A stretch of DNA of 32,000 bases. It comes from Candidatus Saccharimonadota bacterium (GTDB lineage Bacteria; Patescibacteriota; Gracilibacteria; Absconditabacterales; Absconditicoccaceae). How positions within the stretch are numbered: the stretch's first letter is position 1; each line of letters starts with the position of its first letter. Under the pieces are notes generated by a model. That model saw only the letters and a program-made list of their open reading frames with translations, did not search any database and was not told where the DNA came from. The DNA lies in contig CP006913.1 of NCBI GenBank assembly GCA_000503875.1, positions 1,050,001 through 1,082,000 on the forward strand. The letters run 5' to 3'. The translations under genes and the position numbers were made by a program. This document shows positions 3,786 to 30,656 of this stretch, in pieces.

Positions 3786-6700
3786 TTTTTATCAGAAAGA
3801 ACATAGATAATTTTTGTTTCGGCAAGTTTATCATGAAGTAACTGCCCATTTTCTCAAGTCCAAAACAAATAAAGATTATACACCCCTAATCATAAATAGA
3901 TAAAAAGTCAGAACATTGCTGCATATCATCAAATCAAAATAGACAACAATCATGTCAAAACCAATGGTCAAATTAATAACAAAAGAAACCAAAACATTCT
4001 TTTTGAAATATGTTTTTTGCTTAAATTTTTTCCATGTAAATCAACTATTTTCATATTCAATGCATCGTGATTTTGTGTCGCACCATTATTTATCCATTGC
4101 ATATATTGTGCTTTAAAATACCAAATAGCATATATTATCAAAAGCAATACAACAAATACAGCAAACCAAACAGATCATAAAAAGCCCAACTCAAAGAAAC
4201 CACTAAATAATATGAGGCCAATAAAAACAACTATTGGTCGCTTAATAAAATTAAAAATTGGAATCAATGCCCTCTTAACAAGCAACACAATTTTTTGTTT
4301 ATCATAGAACAAAGATGGTAGAGCAAATAAGTTTGAAAAAGAACCAAAAAGTAATCAAAATATAATTGTAATAGCCAAGGTTTTCCAAAAATCATCATTA
4401 ATTACTGATGCTAAACCAAGGGTTGCAGCCAAAACATTTACAATAATAGGCTGTAATCTTGATCTGCCAGCATATCTAATAGCTTTCAGAGGTTCCATAC
4501 CTATCCTAATATTCTCGTTTATTTTATAAAGACACAAAATAGAGTCGTTTACTATAATACCTGTCAAAGAAATAAATCAAATTCCAAACATAATACTATA
4601 AGCATTACCAGTTACAAACAATCAAATATTAGCTCCCAATAATCATACAGCAATACTATACATTATGATAGCTGGTTGGAGATAACTATTTAATTGGAAT
4701 ACCAAAATACCAAATATAGCAAAGATCGCTATTAAAAATGCCATCAACATAGCATTTATTAAATCCGCATTTTCTTGATTTTCACCAGACTGTTTATAGG
4801 TGATTCCATCAGGAAATATATACGAAGAAGCGTAGGTATCTAATTGTGATTGAATTTGATTTGATGTATATCATAACTCAAGATTAGCGTCTATAACAAT
4901 AGATATTTTTGTATCCTCTCTCGAAACTGCGCTTATAGCATTATCAAAAGAATAAGTAGATATATCGCCAAAATTAATTTGACCAGCTTGTGTATTTATA
5001 TTTATTTGATCTAAATCAGAAGGAGTCATTCATTTATCAAAACCATCATATTTTAATTTTATATTATGATTGTCTAGCTGTCATTTTAAAGTTCAAGCAT
5101 TTCGCCCATTAGTTAGTGCATATAAATCTAGATACAAAGACCCTGGCGTTAGTCATAACATAGAAAGCTTGGCAGCATCAAGAGTATAAACAAACTGACC
5201 GGGCGTTTCTTGAGAAGAATTTCAAACATTCTTGACACCAGGAATATCACGTAAATAGTTTTCAAAATCTCTAGATATCTCTATAAGATTTTGCATTTTT
5301 TTGTTTGAATCAGCAATAAGTTTAATTCAGACTTCTTTTGTTCCTGGAGGTCAATCTTTTAATGCAGCTATATTAATTCTAAGGCCGTACGATCTTAAAA
5401 AATTTAATTCTTTATCAAAATATTTTTCAAGAACAAATACATTTCTCATTCAATCTTTTTTTCTCTCTATCGGATCCAAAAATTCCAAATTAATAGACAC
5501 AGAATTTCCCATAACATTATAACTATATACTTTTATTTCAGGGGTATTTGCCAAGATATCATCTAAAGTTTGACCAGCTTTATTGGTAAAATATAGCTGT
5601 TTTTCCATTTCTTTGTTAGTTAATCCTTTCTTCCCAACAATAGACATTGTCATATATCAATTATCATTATCCGGAAAAAGTTTAAATCAAATAAGTGGAG
5701 CAAGGAACACAAAGCTAACCACCAATCCTATAAGCGGAATCATAACAGCCCAAAATCTTCTTTTAACATTTTCTGTTACCCAAGTAATTTTTTCAAAATA
5801 CCAATCATTTATTTTATTTAACATATTCTCACGAAAAGAAAGACTTTGATGATCTTTTTGTTCCTTATCCTTTCTATCATCCTCCAAAAGAGCAAGATCT
5901 TCTTTGTTCATATATTGTATTTGTTCTTCGTCATTTTCAAAGTAATTTTTTTTCTTGGCTATTTTGAAATAAAGGGCAGAATTTATAGTCAATCAAATAA
6001 ACAATGCTGCAAGTAAGGTAGAGAAAATAGTTATCGGAATATATGCCAAAAATTTTCCCATAATACCAGGTAACATAAGCATTGGTAAGAAAACAACAAC
6101 ATTGGTTATTGTCGCAGTGATTAATGGTCACTTATATTCTTTAACAGTTAATAAAATGGCATTTTTGGGATTGTATCAAAGTTTTATTTTTTCATTTGCT
6201 CACTCTATAATTACGATCGTAGTATCTACCGCTATAGAAAATGTAATCAAAAAACTAAAATTGGTCAAAAAATTTAACGTCATTCCCATCTGATCAAGGA
6301 CAATAAACGTTACCAACAATGCCAGAGGAAATGTAGTCGCTGCAATCAATGATTCTCTAATCCCAACCAAGACAAGCAAAGACAAAAATACCAAAACAAT
6401 ACTTTGCAAAAAATTATTTATAAGGCCATCATAATCTTTACTAATTAATTCTGACATATCGCTCGTATACAATACACTGAGTCAATCATAATCATATTTA
6501 TTCAATTCATCTTCCAATAATTCTTTAGCAGAAGTTGATGCGTCAAAAATATTCGCACCAGATTTTTTATTGAATTTAAGAGCAACATAATTTTGTCCAG
6601 TGATTTGATATGCTCATAATCTATAAAAATTATCATCATTTAATCTCTTTTCTATTTTTGCGATATCTTTGAGATAGATAAATCATTCACGTGTTGTAAT

Positions 6701-7510
6701 TGGTATATTTTTAAGCTGTTCTAATGTATCAAAAGATCCTTGAATTCTAAAATCGTAAGAAAATTGATCTATAACATGACTTCCCAATGGTTGATTCTTG
6801 TTCCACTGCTGCAATATTTGTCAAAGTTGCAAAAAATTCATTCCAAGTGCTTCTAATTTATCTTTATTTACAAGAACATAGACATCATATGTTTGACTAT
6901 TTCATCAAATTCAATCTACAGATTCCATACCAGCATATCATCAAACATCAATAGTGGTAATAGATCCTTTTCCAGCCAAATTTGATTTTATTCTTCTTGC
7001 TTTTTCTACAAGATATAATTGTGAATATATGTCTTTTTCTCCATATAATAAAACATTAAACATTAATTCATTATCTGATGATATTTCTGTGACAACAGGT
7101 TCTTCTGCATCACTAGGTAAATCTGCTTTATCAACAGAATCTTTGATATCTACAATAACATCATTGGTGTTCGCATCATTTTCTAATTCCAAAATAATAC
7201 TAGAAAATCATACAACACTTGTGGATGTTATTTTTTTAATTCATTGGATATCTTTTATTTCTTGTTCTATTTTTTCAGTAATCAAATTATCAATATCCTG
7301 TGGATTTACTCATTGATAAACTGTACCTACACTAATAATACCAAAGTCTATGTCTGGTGACGTTTCTTTGGGAATCTCATAGACAGAAAAAATTCATACA
7401 ACAATAATTAACGCAACCAAAACAAAAGTAAATCTCCATTTTTGTACCCAAAAACCAAAAAAACCAGACTCTATTTTTTTCTTGATTTTTTCTAAAGATA
7501 TTTTTTTCAT
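3782..7510 (-). CDS. RND-family efflux transporter permease (AcrB/HAE-like), 1242 aa
   Basis: Five track fragments (4355.., 5450.., 5687.., 6200.., 6941..) share one frame. N-terminal TM plus periplasmic loop motifs, and C-terminal GLLFGSFSNLFALPSLFY. The 3782-4354 stretch was checked for TAA/TAG and none was found. Confidence 0.85.
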
Positions 7511-7531
7511 AATCAAGTATGAAGGTAAAAT

Positions 7532-9274
7532 TTATTTTTTTATTTTAAGACTAAATTTAGAAGGATCAAAATAAGAAACATCGTTAGTAACAATATTTGC
7601 ACCATTATATAATCAAGAGAAAATTTCAATATAGGTATCCCAAACACGTCAAAGAATAACAGATTGTTTTTGAATACCAGTACCATCATATACTCGAACA
7701 AATCATTTGTTTTCTGTTACGGGTGTTATTACATTGATAGGAAGGACAGAAAATGGCAATGAAATAGGGAGTTTTACAGAAGCAATACCACCCAAAAGGG
7801 AAACAGAATCACCAAATCAAACAGTTACTTTATATAAGGTTGTCTTATCTGCTACAGAAGAAACAGATAAAATAGTTCCCGTAAAATCAAGTCATCAATA
7901 AGAAATTTTAGCAAGCTGTTTAAGTGAAAGATATCAACGTTCCTCAGCGGTTACATATACTTCAATAGTTTGTTTGTCGTTACTAGAAAGCGTAAAAAGA
8001 GGCGTTCCTGGACCAACCTCTTGTCAAATATCAACAAGAATATTTCAAATGACTCAATTAATTGGAGCTTTTACTGACAAATTATTAAATCTACTCAAAG
8101 CATCTTGATAAGAAAGATTTGCCTCACTGACAGCATTGTTTGCCATACTAATTTGTATGTCTTTGTTTTTCAACAAATTATCATAATTAGTTTCAGCGCT
8201 TTTTACACCAACTTCAGTAGAAAAAAGCGTATTATGAGAATTAATACGAGCTATATCATAGCCAATTTTTGCCTGTTCTTTTGTGACTTCAATTAAGTTT
8301 CATCAAGTACCTTGAGACAATAAAGCATTAACCTGTCTACGATATGCTGAAACACCCGTTTTTGCTCCCTGTAAAGATCACAACAAACCATCAACTTTTG
8401 CTCTATATCAATCAAGCATCCCCTGAGACAAAGATGATGTTACAATAGAATTTGTTATAACAATTTTCATTGTGTCCAACAATTGATTTGCTTTATTATA
8501 TCATTTTTCAATTATATCAACACCGCTTAAAACAACTTTTGAATCATTGGTATTTGAACTTAAATCTGATATTTTTTCTCTTAAATCATATAAATCTAGA
8601 ACATATTGCTTTGCGTTTACTTTTGTATCAACGTCATTTCATCACAAATAAGGTTCATAATATCTATTTATGTTCTCATATTCTTCAGTCACTCACAAAT
8701 AAGTATCCAATTGATTAAGAATGGTGTCAATTACATTTAATGCATTGTTTTTTTCCAAGTCAAATTGAAGATATATATTTTGAGATTGAGCTGTTGCACT
8801 AGAAAAATCAAGCTCTGCTTTTTTTAAAGATTGTTCTGTGGTTAATTTACCAACAGAGTAATTATTTTGAGCAACGTCCAAAGCAGTTGATACATCTGTT
8901 AAAGATTTATCAAGAGAGACTTTGGTTTGTTCTTTTTGTAAAGAAGCCCTATTAATAGCGTTTTTTGCCCTTTGAACTTGTAACCCATAATTAGCAACAG
9001 TGTCTGAAATTATTACCACTAACTGTTCACCAGATACTAAAGCGCCATCTTTCATTTCAATAGATTTTACTCTACCCGCAACTTGAGATGTCACAACAAT
9101 ATCTTGACTTCAAGCAACCCTACCAGGCTTAGAAATGAATATTTCTTGATCTAAATTATTAAATGACATTGTTTCAATAAAAAAATCTTGTTTATTGTCT
9201 TCGGTATTATTTGAACATCAAGCCAACAAACCAACAACTAATAATACAAATAGTCATATAAGATATTTTTTCAT
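7532..9274 (-). CDS. efflux adaptor (membrane fusion protein), lipoprotein
   Basis: Signal peptide with lipobox LLAGC, where the G is TGA. Lipoyl-like TSQVAGRVKSI plus a long coiled coil. Whole frame checked: only TGA interruptions. Confidence 0.75.
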
Positions 9275-9300
9275 ATAATCAAAAAAACAAAAATAAAGAA

Positions 9301-9540
9301 TTATTTTTTAATACGAGCTAATTCCTCTTGCATCATAGAGACAAAAGACTCCAAATCTGTAGATTTAATAAGTCAAATAGCCTTACCATGTTTCACAGTG
9401 ACTATCATACTATCACCAGGGTTAAGATCTATCATTTTTCTCACTTCATTGGGAATAACAATTTGTCCTTTTGCACCGACAACAACATTACCAAAAATTT
9501 GAATATTTGAACACTCTGGATGATTTGAATCTATCTGCAT
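9301..9540 (-). CDS. AbrB/MazE/SpoVT-family DNA-binding protein
   Basis: 79 aa. GQIVIPNEVRKMIDLNPGDSMIV is a typical SpoVT-AbrB looped-hinge-helix motif. Confidence 0.7.
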
Positions 9541-9605
9541 AATATATATAAAATAGATAAAGTATGATTTGTATAACTTTTCATACCTTTAATTCAAGAG
9601 AAATT

Positions 9606-10313
9606 TTATCTTTTTATCCAAAATAGACTATCTAGATGTAATGATGAAATACCAGAAATTTTTGATAATTCATATGTTTTTGCAATAATTTCTTTGTCAG
9701 AAAGCGCACCATAACTAATCAAAAATAACTTTCTAATTCTAGAATCTACAGGAATAGCGACATCCAAAGGATATGGAACAAATTTATCATAAACAACTCT
9801 TGCGGCATACCCAAACATTTTTACTGCAAAACAAAGAGTTTTAGACCAAATAGGTACTGACATAGCTTGTCATAAATCCTGCCACAAACCAACCATATCA
9901 TCATGATAAAGGTCCATCGATTTCAAAGAAAATTGAGATAGTTTTTTTAATCTAGCTACTTTAATATTGTATAACCTTTTATTGTATTTTGACGTGATCA
10001 TCAAATTATACCATCGATCAAAACTAGCTTTTCATTGTATAAAATCAAGTAACAATATATCAAAATCAGACTTTAATTTTTCTGCAAATTCCTCCCATCG
10101 TAACTCGCCACTTCACGCTATTTGATAACTTATCAACGCATTGTATATTACCGCTCTCAAAAACACTTCTTGAACTACCTTATTATCAACATCACCAAAA
10201 TCACGATTTTTAATCAATTCCCAAGCTGACCTTAATGCCAAAAATTGCCTATCAGATTCCTCTATAGCAACAATTTCTTCAAATGAATAATCAGCGATAA
10301 GCTTGGTTAGCAT
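9606..10313 (-). CDS. AGOG-type N-glycosylase/DNA lyase (8-oxoguanine)
   Basis: Two track ORFs joined through TGAs. NALISYQIAGSGE, KTLCFAVKMFGYAARVVYDKFVPYPLDVAIPVD and LHLDSLFW match the archaeal-type AGOG family as I remember it. Confidence 0.8.
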
Positions 10314-12611: not shown

Positions 12612-12860
12612 TTATTTCCTCAATACATACAAACAAAAGAATCTGAATATTTGTCTATACTGTCTAATTTTATATAACGATCTACCTTTATTTTTCATAT
12701 TGGCTAGAAATTCACGAAACATTTGCTGATTAAACATCTCCATTGATCCATGACACCAAAGAAAAAACAATCCAAGATAAATACAATATCTTTCAACTTT
12801 TTTCTCACTATAGCCCCTAAGCAACAATTCTTGTTTGAATTGCATCATAAGTTTCGCCAT
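12612..12860 (-). pseudogene. remnant of a second tyrosine recombinase (N-terminal SAM-like domain only)
   Basis: MAKLMMQFKQELLLRGYSEKKVERYCIYL...IRQYRQIFRFFCLYVL aligns by pattern with the N-terminus of the neighbouring integrase (LSRELQQRNYSPRTVEIYSNCL...INLYKEVIKFFCSQIL). It stops after about 82 aa and has no catalytic domain. Confidence 0.55.
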
Positions 12861-12900
12861 AATACCGGACATAAAAGATAAATTTAAACAAACCAAGGAA

Positions 12901-13002
12901 GAGAAAGATTTCCTTATCAAAGGACCGATACATCCTCTCCCTCATGTTCGCCGAAATTCTAACAATCCCAAAAAAGAAAAAAACTGACAAAAGTAGGACA
13001 AA
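12901..13002. repeat. 102-bp direct repeat, copy 1
   Basis: Matches 14423-14524. The core CTC(C)CTCATGTTCGCCGAAATTCTA[A/G]CAAT[C/T]CCA[A/G]AAAAGAAAAAAACTGACAAAA[G/A]TAGGACAAA is near-identical. It ends exactly at the integrase stop codon. Confidence 0.85.
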
Positions 13003-13815
13003 CTATAATGGACTCTGAATGCTCTGTAAATTATGTGTCGAAACCTGGGTATATATCTGCGTCGTTTTGATCGACGAATGTCCAAGTAATTTCTGAATAT
13101 AACGAATATCTGTCCCATTTTCCAACAAATGCGTCGCAAAACTATGACGCAAGGAATGAAATGACGCCTTTTTCTGGACACCCGACCTGAGCAAGGCATC
13201 CTGAAAAATATGCTGTGCGGTTCTCGAATGTAAACCCCCGCCTTGCTCAGAATGAAATAACGGATCCTCATAACTCTTGCTTTCCATCAACATTCTTATT
13301 TCTCCCATAATTTTCTCTGGCAAAATCGTTATCCTATCTTTCTGTCCTTTGGCTGATTTAATATGGATAATCTTTTTATCGAGATTTATATCTCCTACTG
13401 CCAAATGGATCACTTCCGAAACTCTCAAACCCGCACCATATGCCAACGCCAATAAAGTTTTATGCTTCATATTGGACACACTATCCAGAATTTTTTGAAT
13501 CTCCTGACGAGACAAAATAACGGGCAATGTGCGTGGCTGCTTAGAAAGCTTAATATCCAAACGGATAGACAATTTCAAAATCTGACTACAAAAGAATTTA
13601 ATCACTTCTTTGTACAAATTTATGGTCTTCGGCGCTCTACCTTGAGATTCCAAATAAAGAATAAAATCAATGACCTTTTCACGATTGATCTTCGACACAT
13701 CATACTCCAACCGCTTCAAAAAAGACCTCAAACAATTACTATAAATTTCCACCGTCCTCGGACTATAATTTCTCTGCTGAAGCTCCCTAGAAAGCTGACT
13801 TACATAATCTTGCAT
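13003..13815 (-). CDS. tyrosine-type site-specific recombinase (XerC/D-sized, IntI-like C-terminus)
   Basis: 270 aa, no TGA. Catalytic boxes AYGAGLRVSE, KGQKDR, HSLRHSFATHLL and LLGHSSIKTTQIYTQV. Ends in QSPL. Confidence 0.9.
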   Translation of the reverse strand: MQDYVSQLSRELQQRNYSPRTVEIYSNCLRSFLKRLEYDVSKINREKVIDFILYLESQGRAPKTINLYKEVIKFFCSQILKLSIRLDIKLSKQPRTLPVILSRQEIQKILDSVSNMKHKTLLALAYGAGLRVSEVIHLAVGDINLDKKIIHIKSAKGQKDRITILPEKIMGEIRMLMESKSYEDPLFHSEQGGGLHSRTAQHIFQDALLRSGVQKKASFHSLRHSFATHLLENGTDIRYIQKLLGHSSIKTTQIYTQVSTHNLQSIQSPL

Positions 13816-13839
13816 GATAACTATTTAAATAATAAAAAC

Positions 13840-13867
13840 TTGATTTTTAAAGATTATTTATTATAAT
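13840..13867 (+). promoter_or_regulatory. candidate sigma70-type promoter (TTGATT-16 nt-TATAAT) facing away from the recombinase
   Basis: Hexamers at 13840-13845 and 13862-13867. AT-rich background makes chance matches likely. Confidence 0.3.
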
Positions 13868-13890
13868 ACAACCATCATGCTTACTTCTTG

Positions 13891-14015
13891 TAGGCCCCAC
13901 CCTATCAATAGACAGATAGGGTAAACTATGCCTTCGGGCTCCTACCCCGCAAAACACTGCGGGGGAAAACTATCAAGAATCTTCTGGGAAATACATCAAT
14001 CTCAGAAGTTTTTTT
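13891..14015 (+). ncRNA. candidate structured RNA or DNA element (GC-rich, four helices, cUUCGg tetraloop)
   Basis: Hairpins: CCCTATC/GATAGGG (13900-13921), GCC-TTCG-GGC (13930-13939), closing TAGG/CCTA (13891-94/13941-44), CCCCGCA/TGCGGGG (13945-13964). These are followed by CTTCTG/CAGAAG plus a T7 run (13981-14015). Confidence 0.35.
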
Positions 14016-14395
14016 ATATGTTCGAATTCTTCCTTTGACATCAAACCTATTTTAGTGAAAAATCTTTGAGTATCAAAAGTTCTTCATTGACTATTAACGA
14101 TAAAAGATTTTCTTCTGAATTTTACGCTTTGGAAGGCTAAATAATATTTTTCACTATTTTATTTAGTAGTCATAGGCAGAGAAAAATACATATTTCAAAT
14201 CACACTTACAACCAAAACAGGCCTAAAAAATCAATCCTTACCAAAAAGTTCTCTTCAAACATTAGCTCAAATCTTAATATATCGAATTTCTCTTGGTTTG
14301 GGATAAATAATTTTATGAGATCTATTAAGCTTCTTTTTTTCTGAATTCCAAAGATCAAATGTTTTATCATTCAAACAAAATTCTTGCATTACCAT
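13970..14395 (-). pseudogene. MazF/PemK-like toxin interrupted by an in-frame TAA
   Basis: With TGA=Gly: ...WNSEKKKLNRSHKIIYPKPREIRYIKIGANVGRELFGKDGFFRPVLVVSVIGNMYFSLPMTTK-TAA(14159-14161)-NSEKYYLAFQSVKFRRKSFIVNSQGRTFDTQRFFTKIGLMSKEEFEHIKKLL. The PemK-type pattern continues in the same frame after the stop. Confidence 0.6.
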
Positions 14396-14422
14396 AAATA
14401 ATACATATAAAAAATCAAAAAA

Positions 14423-14524
14423 GAGAAAGACACTCATATCAAAAGAGCCAAAACCGTCTCTCCTCATGTTCGCCGAAATTCTAGCAATTCCAGAAAAGAA
14501 AAAAACTGACAAAAATAGGACAAA
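14423..14524. repeat. 102-bp direct repeat, copy 2
   Basis: See copy 1. On the minus strand both copies contain an extended -10-like TGnTAGAAT (copy 2 at 14478-14486), upstream of the toxin here and of the recombinase remnant in copy 1. Confidence 0.85.
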
Positions 14525-14620
14525 TATCCCACTATCACAAAACCATCCATTTTACACCCATTTCACGCCACACAACGTCACAGCAACAACCCCTTTGACC
14601 ACTTATGCGCCACTCTCATG

Positions 14621-14656
14621 TCGCACAAAACCTAGTTGTCGGACATCTACTTTTTG
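14621..14656 (+). other. half-site resembling the 3' side of the hairpin family (candidate primary, attI-like recombination site)
   Basis: CTAG|TTGTCGGACAT compared with ACG|TTGTCTGTCAT (A) and ACG|TTGTATGACAT (B). There is no hairpin to its left. It is preceded by a CA-rich tract with CGCCAC direct repeats at 14566 and 14608. Confidence 0.4.
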
Positions 14657-14789
14657 TTTCAAGCGGAACCTTTTTGATTTTTTCAGAGTGGAGGTAAAAA
14701 CTAGAAAATAGGGATTGACTTTCCATAGTAGATATATATGTACCTTACAGGTAATAAAATATAAAACTAAATAATGGAGAAAATATATT

Positions 14790-15065
14790 ATGGAAATTTT
14801 AATAAAAGGTACTAGCGTGAAATTAATCCAACAATGGATTTCTACAATGTTAAACGACATTAAAAATAATAAAATTTACTGCTCTACAAAAGAGCGTAAA
14901 TTATTCGCTGTAAGCGAAATCAACAGAACTAGATTACAAATAATGAGAGACATTATGCCTACAGAAAGTGACTTGCCTACTTATACTGATACCGAAAGCA
15001 TGAAAATGGATCAAGAAGCACTAAAAAAGTATTTATTAGACATGAAAACATTTTTGGAAAGTTAA
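14790..15065 (+). CDS. hypothetical protein (91 aa), unit 0
   Basis: ATG preceded by GGAG, intact ORF, followed by a strong intrinsic terminator. Confidence 0.5.
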   Translation: MEILIKGTSVKLIQQWISTMLNDIKNNKIYCSTKERKLFAVSEINRTRLQIMRDIMPTESDLPTYTDTESMKMDQEALKKYLLDMKTFLES

Positions 15066-15086
15066 CAATCATTGTGAAATTTGTTT

Positions 15087-15114
15087 AAGCCCGCTTTTTT
15101 CGGGCTTTTTTTTA
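15087..15114 (+). terminator. rho-independent terminator
   Basis: AAGCCCG-CTTTTTT-CGGGCTT stem-loop followed by a T run. Confidence 0.75.
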
Positions 15115-15191
15115 TACTTTTAATTTCCTCCATAATTCATATATTTCCTTTAGTAAACATTTCCACTCAATAAACAAAAAGACATAAACAA

Positions 15192-15279
15192 CAAAAAGAT
15201 AGATCATCCAACAACAGGCTCTGCTGCACATACATTTGTACGTCCAGCTAGAGCCAGACGTTGTCTGTCATATCCCTTA
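15192..15279 (+). repeat. hairpin site A (attC-like)
   Basis: ACAAC-a-GGCTCT-GCTG-[cACATACAtttgTACGTC]-CAGC-t-AGAGCC-agac-G|TTGT. Core 15211-15264. Confidence 0.7.
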
Positions 15280-15447
15280 TAACTAAAAAGTCCTTTCTGA
15301 AAGAAATTTGGAGGGGATTTTTTATTTTAATTTAGATTTTTTATAAAAAAAAGAAAAACTTGTAAGGAAATATAGAATTTCTTTAAATTATTTAAATTTC
15401 TATTTACACTAAAAAAACAAAAACATATAAATCTTAATAAAAAATTA

Positions 15448-16518
15448 TTATTTTATAAGAAACCTTAATTTTTCAATAATTTTTTCAATTAATGGTTCGG
15501 CACTTTGACCATTTAAAAGAGGCAAAAAAGACTTTATTGTATTATTGAGTAATACTTTATCTTCATTATTTAAAACAAGTTTATTAGAAGAATTAGTTAT
15601 TCTTCATAAAACCAAATTCGCAAATATTTTAATCATTAATTTTTCAAAAAAACTACGTAATTGAATTTCTAGTTGATCTCCTTCTAATGTTCGTATATTG
15701 TTTGGAATGTCAAGTTTTTCTTTAACTATATATTCAAGTTCTTCAATAGATCAATTTAATCATATAATTCAAATTGTTTCGTCATTAGAATAATCTTCTG
15801 AATCATAAAAATTCCAATCTTTAAAATTTTTTATATCATTCAACAAATTTAATTCTCTAGTGGTAAGATTTCCATAACAAGATTTTTCTTGTTTTAATGG
15901 AGCGTCATATTCTTGACTAAAATATTGTTTTTTTTTAGCATAAGATAAAGCATCTTTCTTTTCAAAAAAGAATGCACTTCAAATTAAATCTTCTGACACG
16001 AACAGCGATCAATATCATATTGACATATTTTCTTCATAAATTCAATAAGGATTCCCAGCATAAAACCGACCCTTTTTTTGTTTTAATTCATTAATCATCT
16101 CATCCTTATATTCACCAGGTTCTTCTAGACCAAGCTCAATCCAAGAGTCTTGAATAATGATTTCTCAACCATTTTTCTTTTCATATGGAATATTAATATA
16201 TGCTATTTCATAAACAGGATATCAATAACGAATATCTTTTCTATTTCTTTTTCCTTCTTCAGTTATTTTAATTATATCATTAATTTTTTCTATAATCATT
16301 TTTCTATCTCAGATACCATGAATAGTAACTTCTTTTTTTCATGAAGCAAAAGAACTATTAAATAATTTTTTTTCAATTATTCTTGCTGTATTTCATTTTT
16401 CTTGCAAATCATTAATTATATTCTGTTTAGTTTCCCCTTCTACGACTTTTTTTCATTTTAAAACAAATCATTGTTCTTGTAAAGATTGATTGTTTCTTTG
16501 TTTAATTTTATCAGTCAT
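15448..16518 (-). CDS. hypothetical protein (356 aa with TGA=Gly), unit 1, inverted relative to the other units
   Basis: Frame checked line by line: 15 in-frame TGA, no TAA/TAG. ATG at 16516-16518, TAA at 15448-15450. Absent from the standard-code track. Confidence 0.65.
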
Positions 16519-16547
16519 AATAATTTATAAAAAAATAAACATACCTG

Positions 16548-16575
16548 ATTATACTCCCCCCCCTAGATTTGTCAA
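16548..16575 (-). promoter_or_regulatory. consensus promoter TTGACA-16 nt-TATAAT with a G8 tract in the spacer
   Basis: Minus strand reads TTGACAaatctaGGGGGGGGagTATAAT. The -10 lies 29 nt upstream of the unit-1 ATG. C8 on the plus strand at 16556-16563. Confidence 0.6.
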
Positions 16576-16730
16576 ATTTTTTAGGATTTTTTTTATTTAG
16601 GTGGGAAATGGGGTGTTTACTGTGTTTTTGAAAAAAGTCTAAAAAAAAGAAATTTTCTTTAATTTTTTGGTTGATTTATCTTATTTTTATCTTAATTTAA
16701 TTTAGAAAAAATCCCCTCCAAGTAATTAAG

Positions 16731-16811
16731 TAAGGGATACAAACAGACAACACGCACTATCCTACATACAAGCTACAGTCGGATCAGTGCGAAACGTTGT
16801 ATGACATAGCC
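16731..16811 (+). repeat. hairpin site B (attC-like)
   Basis: ACAAC-a-CGCACT-ATCC-[tACATACAagcTACaGTC]-GGAT-c-AGTGCG-aaac-G|TTGT. Core 16747-16800. Confidence 0.7.
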
Positions 16812-16885
16812 TAATTGGATTAAGAAATTAAGGAGGAGCAATTTTAATTTAGATTAGATTTTTTTAGATTTTAGAACCAAGAAAT

Positions 16886-16913
16886 TTGCTAAATTCAAAT
16901 AGATGATTATAAT
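16886..16913 (+). promoter_or_regulatory. candidate promoter TTGCTA-16 nt-TATAAT for the unit-2 ORF
   Basis: Hexamers at 16886-16891 and 16908-16913, 30 nt upstream of the ATG at 16943. Confidence 0.4.
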
Positions 16914-16942
16914 TTAAGTATTTAAATTATAATATAAATTAA

Positions 16943-17644
16943 ATGTCTTCATTAAATGCTTATAACTATGATGAGAATATTGATACAATAGAATCTGATA
17001 AATCTGATATTTTAGAAAAAAATATATATTCGGAAGAAAAAGCACAAGAATTTAAAAAATGATTAGATGCAGAAAAAGATACAACAAGAAGAAAACAAAA
17101 CAAGATAGTAAACCAAACAATAAATGAATTTATTTTGGCTTCTTATCCATTGAATGAATGATGAGAAGAACATTTAAAGAAAAAGTTTTTAAAAATAGGA
17201 GATTGTTATGAAAATTGAGTAAAAGCAGTTGAAATTACAAAATGAGTAAATAATTGAGCAGATCTTATGTGAATATATCAAAAAAAAATTAAAGAAAACG
17301 AAGAAAACATTAAAACGACAGACAAAGAAGAAAAAATACAAATGAATTTTAATAAATTAGTTGAAACATGTAAATGATTAGGAAAAAGAAATAAAGAACA
17401 TATCTTCGCACTTATTAGTACAGATTGATCAATACATTTAGTAAACGACATAGACACTGGACATTATATAATACCCAAATGATTAATTGAAAATTGAGAT
17501 ATATGAAGCTTGGCTAAACCAAATAAAATAGATCCAAACAAAATGGAACGATGAGGTGATCCATTTAATTTAGAAGACCAAGTCTTAGGTGATAAATTAT
17601 TAGAAGTATGAAAAAATGAATCTCTAACAAATAGTAAAAATTAA
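16943..17644 (+). CDS. hypothetical protein (233 aa with TGA=Gly), unit 2
   Basis: ATG to TAA with about 14 in-frame TGA and no TAA/TAG. Absent from the standard-code track. Confidence 0.6.
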
Positions 17645-17700
17645 TTTAGATTTTTTTAATTAAATTTAGAAGAGCCTTTCCTTTTAGTAATTATAGTTTT

Positions 17701-17772
17701 AATTACGGACTACGAACCTACAACAGCCGATACACGACATACACATTACGGTCGTACATCGGCGAACGTTGT
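17701..17772 (+). repeat. hairpin site C (attC-like)
   Basis: ACAAC-a-GCCGAT-ac-ACGAC-[ATACAcatTACg]-GTCGT-ac-ATCGGC-gaac-G|TTGT. Core 17720-17772. Confidence 0.7.
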
Positions 17773-17825
17773 ACGAAAACTCTTGTAGTCTTAGCAGTTG
17801 TACGAAAACTCTTGTAGTCTTAGCA
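17768..17825 (+). repeat. perfect tandem duplication, 2 x 29 bp (GTTGTACGAAAACTCTTGTAGTCTTAGCA)
   Basis: Copies at 17768-17796 and 17797-17825. It begins exactly at the conserved G|TTGT of site C. Confidence 0.9.
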
Positions 17826-17877
17826 AATGAATATTAAATTTACGAAAAGATGTGATTTTATCTTCTCAGCATAAAAA

Positions 17878-18807
17878 ATGGAAATACTTCCACAAAACTT
17901 AAAAATCAATCATAAGAAGACAGCAATGATTGCAGAGAAAATATCTGAGACAAAACAACTTGAAATAATATGAAAGAAAACACAGAATCCAGAAATAAAT
18001 ATTTGGTGATACGATCGACTTATTCATAAAATGGAACCTCATAGAATCACTTTTTTCGATGATGAAGAAAGTACCATTGAAATCAAAATTTGAAGATGAG
18101 ACTATTTGCAGTTTAATAACGAGAAAATTTGGGATGATAAACTCAAAGAAGAAAAAATTAAAGGTGTAAAGACATGAGATAAATCTGTTGAAAGAGCCGA
18201 AATAGAGGGGAAAGAACATTTTCTACTAGGAAAAAGTTACAGGTTCAATTTTGAATTTTTTATACCTGAAAATTTCCCAATAATAGACAATAGACTGGTT
18301 ATTTGACAATGGAAACAACAATTTGAAGAATGAACAAAAAACAACGCTCTCATTGCCCAAAGATTTAGGAACTGAAAATACACAATATCATTTAATCCAA
18401 CCTGAGATCCAAAGGGAAATTGATGAAACGTTAATATATGTGAATTAAATGCTAAAGACGTTCTATGAAAACGAATCCAGACAGAATATGAGATAAGATT
18501 TTCAGAAGACGAAGATGGCTACATCAAAATACGACATAATTGAAATTTTCTTTGGGAATATCATGGTAAAGTAAGTTCAAGTAGTAAAGAATATCCAGTT
18601 TGAAAATACTATAAAGACAACTTTTTCTTCAAATTTTGACTATACAAAGATAGCTACGAAAAAAGACTATTAGAACTAGAAAACGAAGAACAAACAGACG
18701 AAAACCATAAGAAAATTGAAGCTCTAAAAAAAGCAATAGACGATGAAAATAACTGAAAACTTATGACCGTTTATTTCAAAAACTATAAAGTGGAAGAAAT
18801 AGGATAA
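17878..18807 (+). CDS. hypothetical protein (309 aa with TGA=Gly), unit 3
   Basis: ATG at 17878, TAA at 18805-18807, about 16 in-frame TGA. The track shows only a spurious antisense ORF here. Confidence 0.6.
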
Positions 18808-18854
18808 AATTAGCTCTTTTATTTAACTATTCATGTTAAAAATAGATAATCAGA

Positions 18855-18919
18855 ACAACTACAAAAGACTTTCACTTTGCTCGCAGTCAATACACGACAT
18901 ATACATCGGCAAACGTTAT
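18855..18919 (+). repeat. degenerate or chimeric hairpin site D
   Basis: The left part is ACAAC-t-ACAAAA-GACT-[loop]-AGTC. The right part, ATACACGACATATAC-ATCGGC-aaac-G|TTAT, copies the right arm of site C but has no partner for ATCGGC. Confidence 0.5.
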
Positions 18920-23109: not shown

Positions 23110-23341
23110 GGATAAAAGTATAATTATAAAATAAATATTTTTAAAAATCAATTGAGCAATAAAAAGAATAAACAAAAGAAGAAAACATCAACAAACCAAT
23201 ATTATTCGTAGCCAAAGCAGGAATTTAATTATTACAAGACTTTACACTCAAACAAAGATACTGCTTTGATGGTTGATGAATTTTGTTTGTTTTTTATTGC
23301 AAAACAATCTTAAGCAACAAATCAAATATACTGATTTTCTC

Positions 23342-30582: not shown

Positions 30583-30656
30583 AGCGGATAACGGGACTCG
30601 AACCCGTACGAACAGAGCTGAAGTCTGCTATGCTACACCAATTACATCATATCCGC
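30583..30656 (-). tRNA. tRNA-Gly (anticodon UCA), the UGA decoder
   Basis: Acceptor GCGGATA/TATCCGC (G1-C72, C2-G71, G3-C70), discriminator U73, anticodon loop CTTCAGC, T-arm ACGGG-TTCGAGT-CCCGT, normal 74-nt size. Confidence 0.8.

Follow-up and report, generated by a model that had tools for sequence, protein, structure and literature searches.

The locus at positions 13003-18919 of the stretch analyzed here (32,000 nucleotides (nt) of the Gracilibacteria contig CP006913.1, hereafter the window) is probably a chromosomal platform for gene cassettes that functions in the manner of an integron and is built on an Xer-type tyrosine recombinase. A recombinase gene lies beside an attI-like docking site and reads away from an array of gene units that are delimited at G|TT and separated by folded sites of one family. 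Both the integron layout and the idea of a distinct, possibly undescribed cassette system had been put forward in a first-pass annotation made from the letters of this stretch. The layout is supported by the linkage of the sites to the recombinase, by their orientation, by the attI-like site and by turnover of the array. As to novelty, a literature search on integrons in Gracilibacteria, Patescibacteria and the candidate phyla radiation (CPR) found no description of it, and no such system appeared in the literature searched on attC-like sites, integron-like systems and CPR integrons.

The array of the window consists of four units of 625, 1536, 972 and 1147 bp, with lengths given by G|TT boundaries at 14635/36, 15260/61, 16796/97, 17768/69 and 18915/16, and each unit contains one open reading frame (ORF), as first annotated. 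Unit 1 (14636-15260, plus strand) carries an ORF of 91 amino acids (aa) at 14790-15065, a terminator at 15087-15107 and hairpin site A. Unit 2 (15261-16796, plus strand) ends in hairpin site B and contains an inverted 356-aa ORF on the minus strand (15448-16518) with its own promoter, and the ends of this unit are inverted over about 70 nt. Unit 3 (16797-17768, plus strand) carries a 233-aa ORF (16943-17644), also with its own promoter, and ends in hairpin site C, while unit 4 (17769-18915, plus strand) carries a 309-aa ORF (17878-18807) and has the decayed site D at its end. At least two units had been credited with strong promoters of their own, and the promoters of units 2 and 3 are of consensus grade (TTGACA-16-TATAAT at 16575->16548 on the minus strand and TTGCTA-16-TATAAT at 16886-16913 on the plus strand); promoter-like matches as a class are not enriched (38 observed, 38.8 expected). 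Units with one gene each are a feature of this window only; in relatives, units can also hold several genes and reach 7.6 kb.

Sites A (15209-15266, with the G of the boundary at 15260), B (16745-16802) and C (17718-17774) are plus-strand hairpins that score 63, 67 and 57 bits, respectively, with a covariance model built from 20 sites (model R2). When this model was run over the 32-kb window with filters off, A, B and C were the only full matches (57-67 bits). Site D (18856-18919, plus strand) gave a partial match of 13.2 bits and is a decayed half-site. The claim that every unit ends in a member of one hairpin family therefore holds for A, B and C and fails for D, which is unfolded and resembles site C in its 3' half only. 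The pattern ACAAC-N-RACGTTGT occurs four times in the window, compared to 0.03 occurrences expected, and its three plus-strand matches are hairpins (15211-15264, 16747-16800 and 17720-17772, with fold z-scores of -2.5, -2.1 and -1.2). Scored on its reverse strand, site B reaches 8 bits compared to 67 on the forward strand, which indicates that the assignments of orientation are meaningful. Hairpin sites have no T-run, and Rfam, searched at the gathering score and at E<=10, contains no family for them.

The stem of these sites is under selection for folding. In the model alignment, 89% of cells are paired compared to 21-36% in slid controls, the covariation score is 0.49 compared to 0.03-0.06 in the slid controls, and each L-box pair shows 10-16 double-sided changes, all in an alignment that leans towards the model. 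In an anchor-based dissection, which is independent of it, 11 of 14 sites have fully complementary 6-nt L boxes, and the sequences of these boxes are many and different. Column counts over 33 sites give the consensus 5'-..GTCnnACAA|C A N4 CTATCTGACAT ..variable.. ACGTCAGA(C)TAG N4' RAAC G|TTGTnnGAcAT. Sites range from 52 to 135 nt in length, and the AAC/GTT triplets, an internal loop, a bulged base and covariation are all present; beyond AAC and GTT, the R boxes do not fit RYYYAAC / GTTRRRY. The apical loop sequence ACATACA, described earlier as conserved, is not conserved as such across the family and turned out to be part of a conserved L-arm motif, ..TCTGACAT (distal GACAT-type).

The docking site differs from the unit-terminal sites in form. 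The first boundary of the array, at 14635, is not a hairpin and instead has a double-stranded attI-type core. The attI-like site (14545-14646, plus strand) is conserved in 13 loci, lies beside the recombinase gene as the point of insertion, and has its core at 14618-14646. This core has an 11-7-11 architecture with two inverted 11-bp arms and a 7-bp spacer: the left arm ATGTCGCACAA (14618-14628), the spacer AACCTAG (14629-14635) and the right arm TTGTCGGACAT (14636-14646), with a probable crossover after G14635, as G|TTGTCGGACAT. Conservation across the 13 loci stops sharply at ..CACA[A/G]AA[C/G]CTAGTT. In six loci, the sequence after attI is complementary to the terminal site of the first unit itself at 5-7 of 7 positions. 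The arm consensus is CTGTGCGACAT for the left arm of attI (reverse complement), TTGTnnGACAT for its right arm, TTGTnTGAnAT for the R arm of the folded sites and CTATCnGACnT for their L arm. All four arm types fit YTRTnnGAcAT, and this shared consensus suggests that the folded site mimics the attI core. A search of IMG/VR with the attI motif gave one chance match only, inside a phage gene.

The same sites accompany related recombinases. We fetched loci around recombinase homologues (designated by L numbers) and set the recombinase on the plus strand in each. A regular expression recovered the site architecture in L011, L012, L014, L021, L028 and L029, each time on the minus strand and upstream of the recombinase. 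A first covariance model (R1, 8 sites) gave 20 matches at E<=1 on both strands of 688 kb, three in the window and 17 in relatives, and all 17 of the latter fell in one quadrant of position and strand (P~1e-10). Model R2, searched against both strands of 736 kb around 90 recombinase loci, gave 24 matches at E<0.2, again three in the window, with the 21 in relatives spread over 10 loci; in a further 71 kb from four new loci, it gave nine matches in three of them (L094, L095 and L096). All matches in relatives lie upstream of the recombinase on one relative strand, in loci whose upstream (48 kb) and downstream (45 kb) flanks are about equal, and zero copies of the hairpin family lie downstream of the recombinase in the 20 closest loci (100 kb of flank). 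Within the sequence searched, the family is thus not scattered through intergenic regions, with only three sites in the 32-kb window. Counted by related locus, covariance searching recovers the family in eleven, with arrays of at least two sites in eight. Where the recombinase is at least 62% identical and enough upstream sequence is available, nine of nine loci carry arrays, in non-syntenic contexts. Site orientation tracks the recombinase and not the neighboring ORFs, as unit 2 and many ORFs of L011, a classical-looking array of seven sites in which most units are 0.5-0.6 kb long with a single gene, are inverted relative to the sites. A separate scan of 185,579 species genomes with an exact pattern that included the loop motif ACATACA yielded six chance matches of about 15 bits in unrelated phyla; this motif was too specific, and the source genome of the window is apparently not a species representative in that set.

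Arrays turn over between close relatives. L014 and L015 represent the orthologous locus in a sister species, with synteny from the recombinase through about 7.5 kb of flank at 75-88% identity. On the array side, homology ends at window position 14637, and the next 9 kb, which contain three sites, are unrelated to the units of the window. The sister species has therefore kept the recombinase, the flank and attI and has a different array; this is the kind of difference in units at G|TT for which the first-pass annotation had proposed to look.

Units also bear a signature expected of former circles. When the 5' flank of a site is reverse-complemented, it agrees with the start of that site's own unit at 4.71 of 7 positions, compared to 3.33 +/- 0.26 after permutation (p<1e-4) and 3.52 of 7 for the start of the next unit (own start better, Wilcoxon p = 0.03). 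We simulated circles by joining the end of a unit, up to the G, to its own start. For 19 units, the mean folding energy of these junctions was -23.6 kcal/mol compared to -16.4 kcal/mol for the array junctions (16 of 19 better, p = 3e-4), and joining the starts of foreign units instead gave a mean of -16.3 kcal/mol (p = 6e-5 compared to own starts). For example, simulated circle and array junctions have energies of -27.7 and -16.4 kcal/mol for unit 1, -38 (-35.9 with shorter flanks) and about -15 kcal/mol for unit 2, and -41.8 and -20.5 kcal/mol for a 7.6-kb helicase unit of L012. In this respect the units behave like former circles, and circular intermediates may have existed.

The recombinase (13003-13815, minus strand; 270 aa) is a XerA-like tyrosine recombinase and the presumed cassette recombinase. 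It contains the complete R..K..HxxR..H..Y set, with exactly 58 residues between the KGQKDR and HSLRH boxes, as noted before, and matches Phage_integrase (PF00589, E = 2e-41) plus SAM_4. With 227.8 bits, it reaches the cutoff of 220 of the XerA equivalog model NF040815 (NCBIfam) and so counts as a XerA equivalog, while its 193.6 bits with the integron-integrase model TIGR02249 fall below the cutoff of 265, in a match split into two stretches. Of the proteins with a solved structure, P. abyssi XerA (4a8e) matches best, at 150 bits and end to end. VchIntIA (2a3v) aligns at 140 bits in two pieces (query 10-200/11-205 and 204-270/251-317), so that its residues 206-250, the IntI-specific domain of about 45 aa, have no counterpart in our enzyme; the predicted absence of this insertion is thereby borne out. 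More than 100 recombinase homologues with 51-91% identity are all about 270 aa long, and the close ones are labeled Gracilibacteria or Absconditabacterales. An IntI-specific extra domain around patch III defines the integron integrase according to Messier and Roy (2001), as relayed in PMC9668308, which likewise defines IntI by its extra domain. Because our recombinase does not have this domain, the system is not a member of the integron family as so defined. In the literature, the simple tyrosine recombinases of candidate phyla are placed in an Xer-related subgroup, 'Cand', listed with class-specific subgroups that possibly compensate for Xer (PMC8138268).

We propose that attI would act as a double-stranded docking site beside the recombinase, with exchange at the border of spacer and right arm (at G|TT in the top strand and at AA|C in the bottom one). 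The mobile unit, of one gene or several, would carry a long imperfect palindrome that, folded as a single strand, would mimic the attI core. The R arm of this folded site would be formed by TTGTnnGAcAT paired with the far end of the same unit; its 'spacer' would comprise a C-G pair, an A / RAAC internal loop and four freely covarying base pairs; and its L arm would be CTATCTGACAT / ACGTCAGA(C)TAG with one extrahelical base, topped by 10-90 nt of variable apical sequence. A circular unit that recombined with attI would be inserted beside the recombinase, and recombination between two sites would lead to excision. Tyrosine recombinases cleave at arm/spacer borders and make few base contacts in the spacer. 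Given cleavage at these borders, the G|TT breakpoint would correspond to bottom-strand cleavage at AA|C, as in integrons. Since the spacer of the cassettes is unrelated to the attI spacer AAGCTAG, exchange of one (bottom) strand pair, resolved by replication as in integrons and CTX-phage integration, would be most likely and two-strand exchange unlikely. Many units would bring their own promoters for expression, and a MazF-like toxin with a candidate antisense small RNA (sRNA) inside the platform would probably stabilize the platform. More tentatively, and with slightly less than even confidence, we suggest a Gracilibacteria lineage of integron-type platforms for gene capture in which a plain Xer-like recombinase, without the I2 insertion to which the ability for single-strand recombination has been ascribed, recombines folded hairpins that mimic its own dif-like core, either as a living model of a stage that preceded IntI in integron evolution or as an independent invention of the integron principle.

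This system shares with integrons a recombinase that reads away from an adjacent attI, a head-to-tail array in which each unit ends in an imperfect palindrome, AAC...GTT triplets with a probable crossover at G|TT, and a site whose predicted fold leads from an R box through an unpaired center and an L box, in which one base is extrahelical, to a variable top. Cassette starts that are complementary to their own site, arrays that differ between close relatives, and cargo rich in ORFans, defense genes and a toxin module are further common features. It differs from integrons in having an enzyme without the IntI-specific domain (I2 helix) that reaches the XerA model cutoff, in its YTRTnnGAcAT arms and A / RAAC loop with both arms conserved in sequence, in the many units that carry their own promoters and the several multi-gene units of up to 7.6 kb, and in its hosts, Gracilibacteria with genetic code 25. 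A mechanistic precedent for our proposal is provided by CTX phage and other integrative mobile elements exploiting Xer (IMEX), in which an Xer-type enzyme without the IntI domain acts at dif on a folded single-stranded hairpin that mimics the double-stranded core, and one strand pair is exchanged and resolved by replication. IMEX, however, are phages or plasmids that integrate at the dif of the terminus, whereas the gene units found here are not replicons, stand in ordered arrays and are docked at a site that accompanies the recombinase gene and does not coincide with a skew switch. The pdif modules of Acinetobacter plasmids are likewise discrete gene modules bounded by Xer-type sites in various contexts, and pdif sites are plain 28-bp double-stranded sequences in alternating orientation. 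To our knowledge, pdif modules have no covarying hairpin and no adjacent dedicated recombinase gene or docking site. Archaeal XerA and the 'Cand' subgroup resemble our recombinase in size and two-domain build, with 4a8e as the best match; XerA differs in being a dimer resolvase at a single dif, and we know of no cassette arrays or hairpin sites for it.

Several observations weigh against a cassette platform of this kind. The enzyme lacks the domain with I2, which integron integrases require to act on folded attC sites. More distant recombinase homologues (40-57% identity) mostly have no detectable sites, the exceptions being L029, L052 and L081, and our site searches covered the regions around recombinase genes, so that further sites may be present elsewhere in these genomes. 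Two sequencing runs carry an identical array (100% over 10.8 kb, Logan assembly), three of the 19 units have no advantage of their own end in the simulated circles, and some units differ from classical cassettes in being large blocks of several genes that carry promoters of their own. One alternative, which we consider unlikely, is that the recombinase is a dimer resolvase with attI as its dif, and that the units are IMEX that hitch-hike by entering through a folded single-stranded site. The recombinase does pass the XerA model NF040815, simple recombinases of candidate phyla have been grouped with subgroups that possibly compensate for Xer (PMC8138268), and the 11-7-11 core of attI has a dif-type architecture. 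Yet the window has negative GC skew on either chromosomal flank of the locus, which is thus not a replication terminus; this clean skew test comes from the window locus alone, the other loci being uninformative with arrays that fill their upstream flank. Moreover, the platform occupies non-syntenic places among relatives, a toxin module and the remnant of a second recombinase lie inside it, and the units carry no replication or virion genes, so that we find neither a single dif at the terminus nor units that are replicons. Mechanistically, this alternative overlaps with a cassette platform and differs from it mainly in the primary role of the enzyme.

The remaining alternatives are less probable still. 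Units with TTGTnnGAC ... GTCnnACAA ends could be elements resembling transposons or miniature inverted-repeat transposable elements that are moved by an enzyme encoded elsewhere and have piled up beside the recombinase, where the region would tolerate insertions. The roughly 70-nt inverted ends of unit 2 and the promoters that units carry would fit this idea. It is nevertheless improbable in view of the absence of transposases from the units examined, of consistent head-to-tail insertion, in nine of nine loci, at a single point within a conserved site next to the recombinase, and of the consensus common to the arms of attI and of the sites. That the hairpins act at the RNA level, as repetitive extragenic palindromes or terminators with no role in recombination, is largely refuted: they are intergenic and follow ORFs, and unit 1 also has a separate terminator, but their orientation follows the recombinase instead of the ORFs, they have no T-run, and no copies occur in the 100 kb downstream, elsewhere in the 736 kb or in the rest of the window. 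Complementarity of a unit's own ends across 0.5-7.6 kb also has no explanation at the level of RNA. Least probable of all is a canonical integron whose integrase we have misread. While 193.6 bits with TIGR02249, 140 bits with VchIntIA and an IntI-like C-terminus speak for it, the score remains below the cutoff of 265, the split alignment omits the IntI-specific domain of about 45 aa, the length of about 270 aa is constant over more than 100 homologues, and the R boxes are unlike RYYYAAC / GTTRRRY beyond AAC / GTT.

An Xer-run cassette platform would escape surveys built on IntI, such as IntegronFinder, and would extend gene-cassette capture to the CPR, where the biology of mobile elements is poorly known. 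How integrons arose from Xer-like ancestors has been approached to date only through engineered IntI (PMC4792948, PMC7790495), and the system would offer a natural test case for this origin. The 11-7-11 core of attI together with its folded copy, in which covarying pairs are confined to the spacer, would constitute a testable rule for how a double-strand recombinase could work on single-stranded substrates.

Cargo varies widely among the arrays. In the window, three proteins belong to no recognized family and one is polysaccharide-lyase-like; no family had been recognized in any of the four ORFs before, which stands for the proteins of 91, 356 and 233 aa and not for the 309-aa protein, a match to Polysacc_lyase (PF14099, E = 6e-14). 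The 356-aa protein of unit 2 is an ORFan with zero homologues among 5.8e9 proteins, and PADLOC found no defense match among the four ORFs. L014 and L028 contain units with Dcm-type methylases, the only cargo shared between arrays, and the cargo of L011 includes a peptide deformylase, two NUDIX proteins and small ORFs. A 7.6-kb unit between two sites of L012 (569-8294) encodes a 1248-aa DEAD helicase and a 995-aa RNase_T/Helicase_C_2 protein. In L096, a Gracilibacteria array (GCA_021734475.1), the first unit (6638-9708) has ThsB_TIR, 8xMP and NspV domains and looks Thoeris-like, and a single-gene Beta-lactamase2 (PF13354) unit is found at 4598-5377, between sites at 5499 and 4453. No replication or virion genes were found in the units of the window, L011, L012, L014 and L094-L096, and no transposase in the units examined. 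This assortment of restriction-modification, Thoeris-type TIR, helicase-nuclease, beta-lactamase-like and NUDIX proteins and ORFans suggests a bank of defense and adaptation genes in organisms with genomes of about 1 Mb. Just beyond the 7.6-kb unit of L012 lies a type III restriction-modification methylase, and the content there resembles a defense island.

Between the recombinase and attI, the platform contains a PemK/MazF-like toxin gene (13970-14398, minus strand) that is interrupted by a TAA codon in frame at 14159-14161. At this codon, the uninterrupted 138-aa orthologues of L016, L017 and L028 (PF02452 E = 2e-8) have TGA or GGC. A one-base change thus appears to have turned TGA, recoded as a sense codon for Gly, into a true stop. 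No protein antitoxin ORF was found beside the toxin gene. A candidate sRNA of about 140 nt is located with its promoter at 13840-14015 on the plus strand (TTGATT-16-TATAAT at 13840-13867), antisense to the 3' end of the toxin gene, with several hairpins, a terminator and a fold z-score of -4.3. The divergent promoter (TTGATT-16-TATA[AC]T) and the terminator are conserved in six loci (the window, L016, L017, L018, L028 and L095), the hairpins are partly compensated between loci, and the candidate sRNA co-occurs with the MazF-like gene. Rfam, at the gathering score and at E<=10, has no family for it. This RNA could be an antitoxin for the MazF-family toxin, or a regulator. We rejected the interpretation of 13870-14015 as a free-standing noncoding RNA beside an 80-aa 'orfX', as the alignment shows that orfX and the downstream frame together form the MazF-like gene, to which the RNA is antisense. 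In L010, a gene for an NYN-domain protein (RNase; 91-786) replaces the toxin gene and the sRNA between repeat and recombinase, in a platform that is 90% identical and located in a different chromosomal context, beside folD. A solitary 79-aa gene of MazE/AbrB type (PF04014) is also present in the window, at about 9301-9540 (L001 14276-14515), within flanking host sequence that is conserved, at a distance of about 4.6 kb from the MazF-like pseudogene.

A direct repeat of about 115 nt, the platform repeat, flanks the recombinase. Copy 1 (12887-13002) directly follows the recombinase stop codon and copy 2 (14409-14524) lies between the mazF-like gene and attI; the copies are 94% identical over 63 nt at a spacing of 1522 nt. 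The equal 1522-nt spacing of two repeat pairs (D1, D6) was taken as coincidence. The platform repeat adjoins attI in 11 loci, and in all relatives its 49-nt core separates attI from the first platform gene. Copy 2 is probably a promoter/operator or an accessory binding region, and no convincing outward promoter was found in attI or the platform repeat. Downstream of copy 1 lies the remnant of a second tyrosine recombinase, an 82-aa N-terminal fragment (12612-12860, minus strand; Phage_int_SAM_4 of Pfam, E = 8.5e-7) that is kept at 88% in L014/L015. The arrangement of copy 1 and fragment is also found in L014/L015 and is absent from L016 and L028; in L013, the downstream repeat copy is present and the contig ends there. 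The presence of the fragment and of copy 1 downstream of the recombinase suggests that the fragment is a remnant of an older platform copy into which a newer copy recombined. In an independent assembly of the same strain (L003, Logan SRR6485897), the sequence breaks 29 nt past the recombinase stop, inside the platform repeat, and the contigs of many recombinase homologues end near the recombinase start. Such assembly ends at platforms fit breaks induced by repeats or variation. The sequence of the window also forms part of DPJE01000001.1 (GCA_003543185.1), a 190-kb contig assembled from a sediment metagenome, and recurs in an ENA assembly.

UGA is a sense codon here, as had been proposed before, in agreement with three observations. 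ORFs of at least 80 aa in the window sum to 14233 aa with translation table 25 compared to 4974 aa with table 11, a tRNA with the anticodon UCA is located at 30583-30656, and one in-frame TGA of the window aligns with GGC (Gly) in a relative. Two further observations concern short repeats. An exact 29-nt tandem duplication (GTTGTACGAAAACTCTTGTAGTCTTAGCA x2) at 17768-17825, at the start of unit 4, begins precisely at the G|TT of site C and may have been left by slippage or by recombination that went wrong. Outside the array, about 190 nt of the window (23126-23316) match three consecutive, slightly overlapping stretches of L015 (7804-8355) at 73-78% identity, and the counterpart in the sister species looks like a tandemly repeated element.

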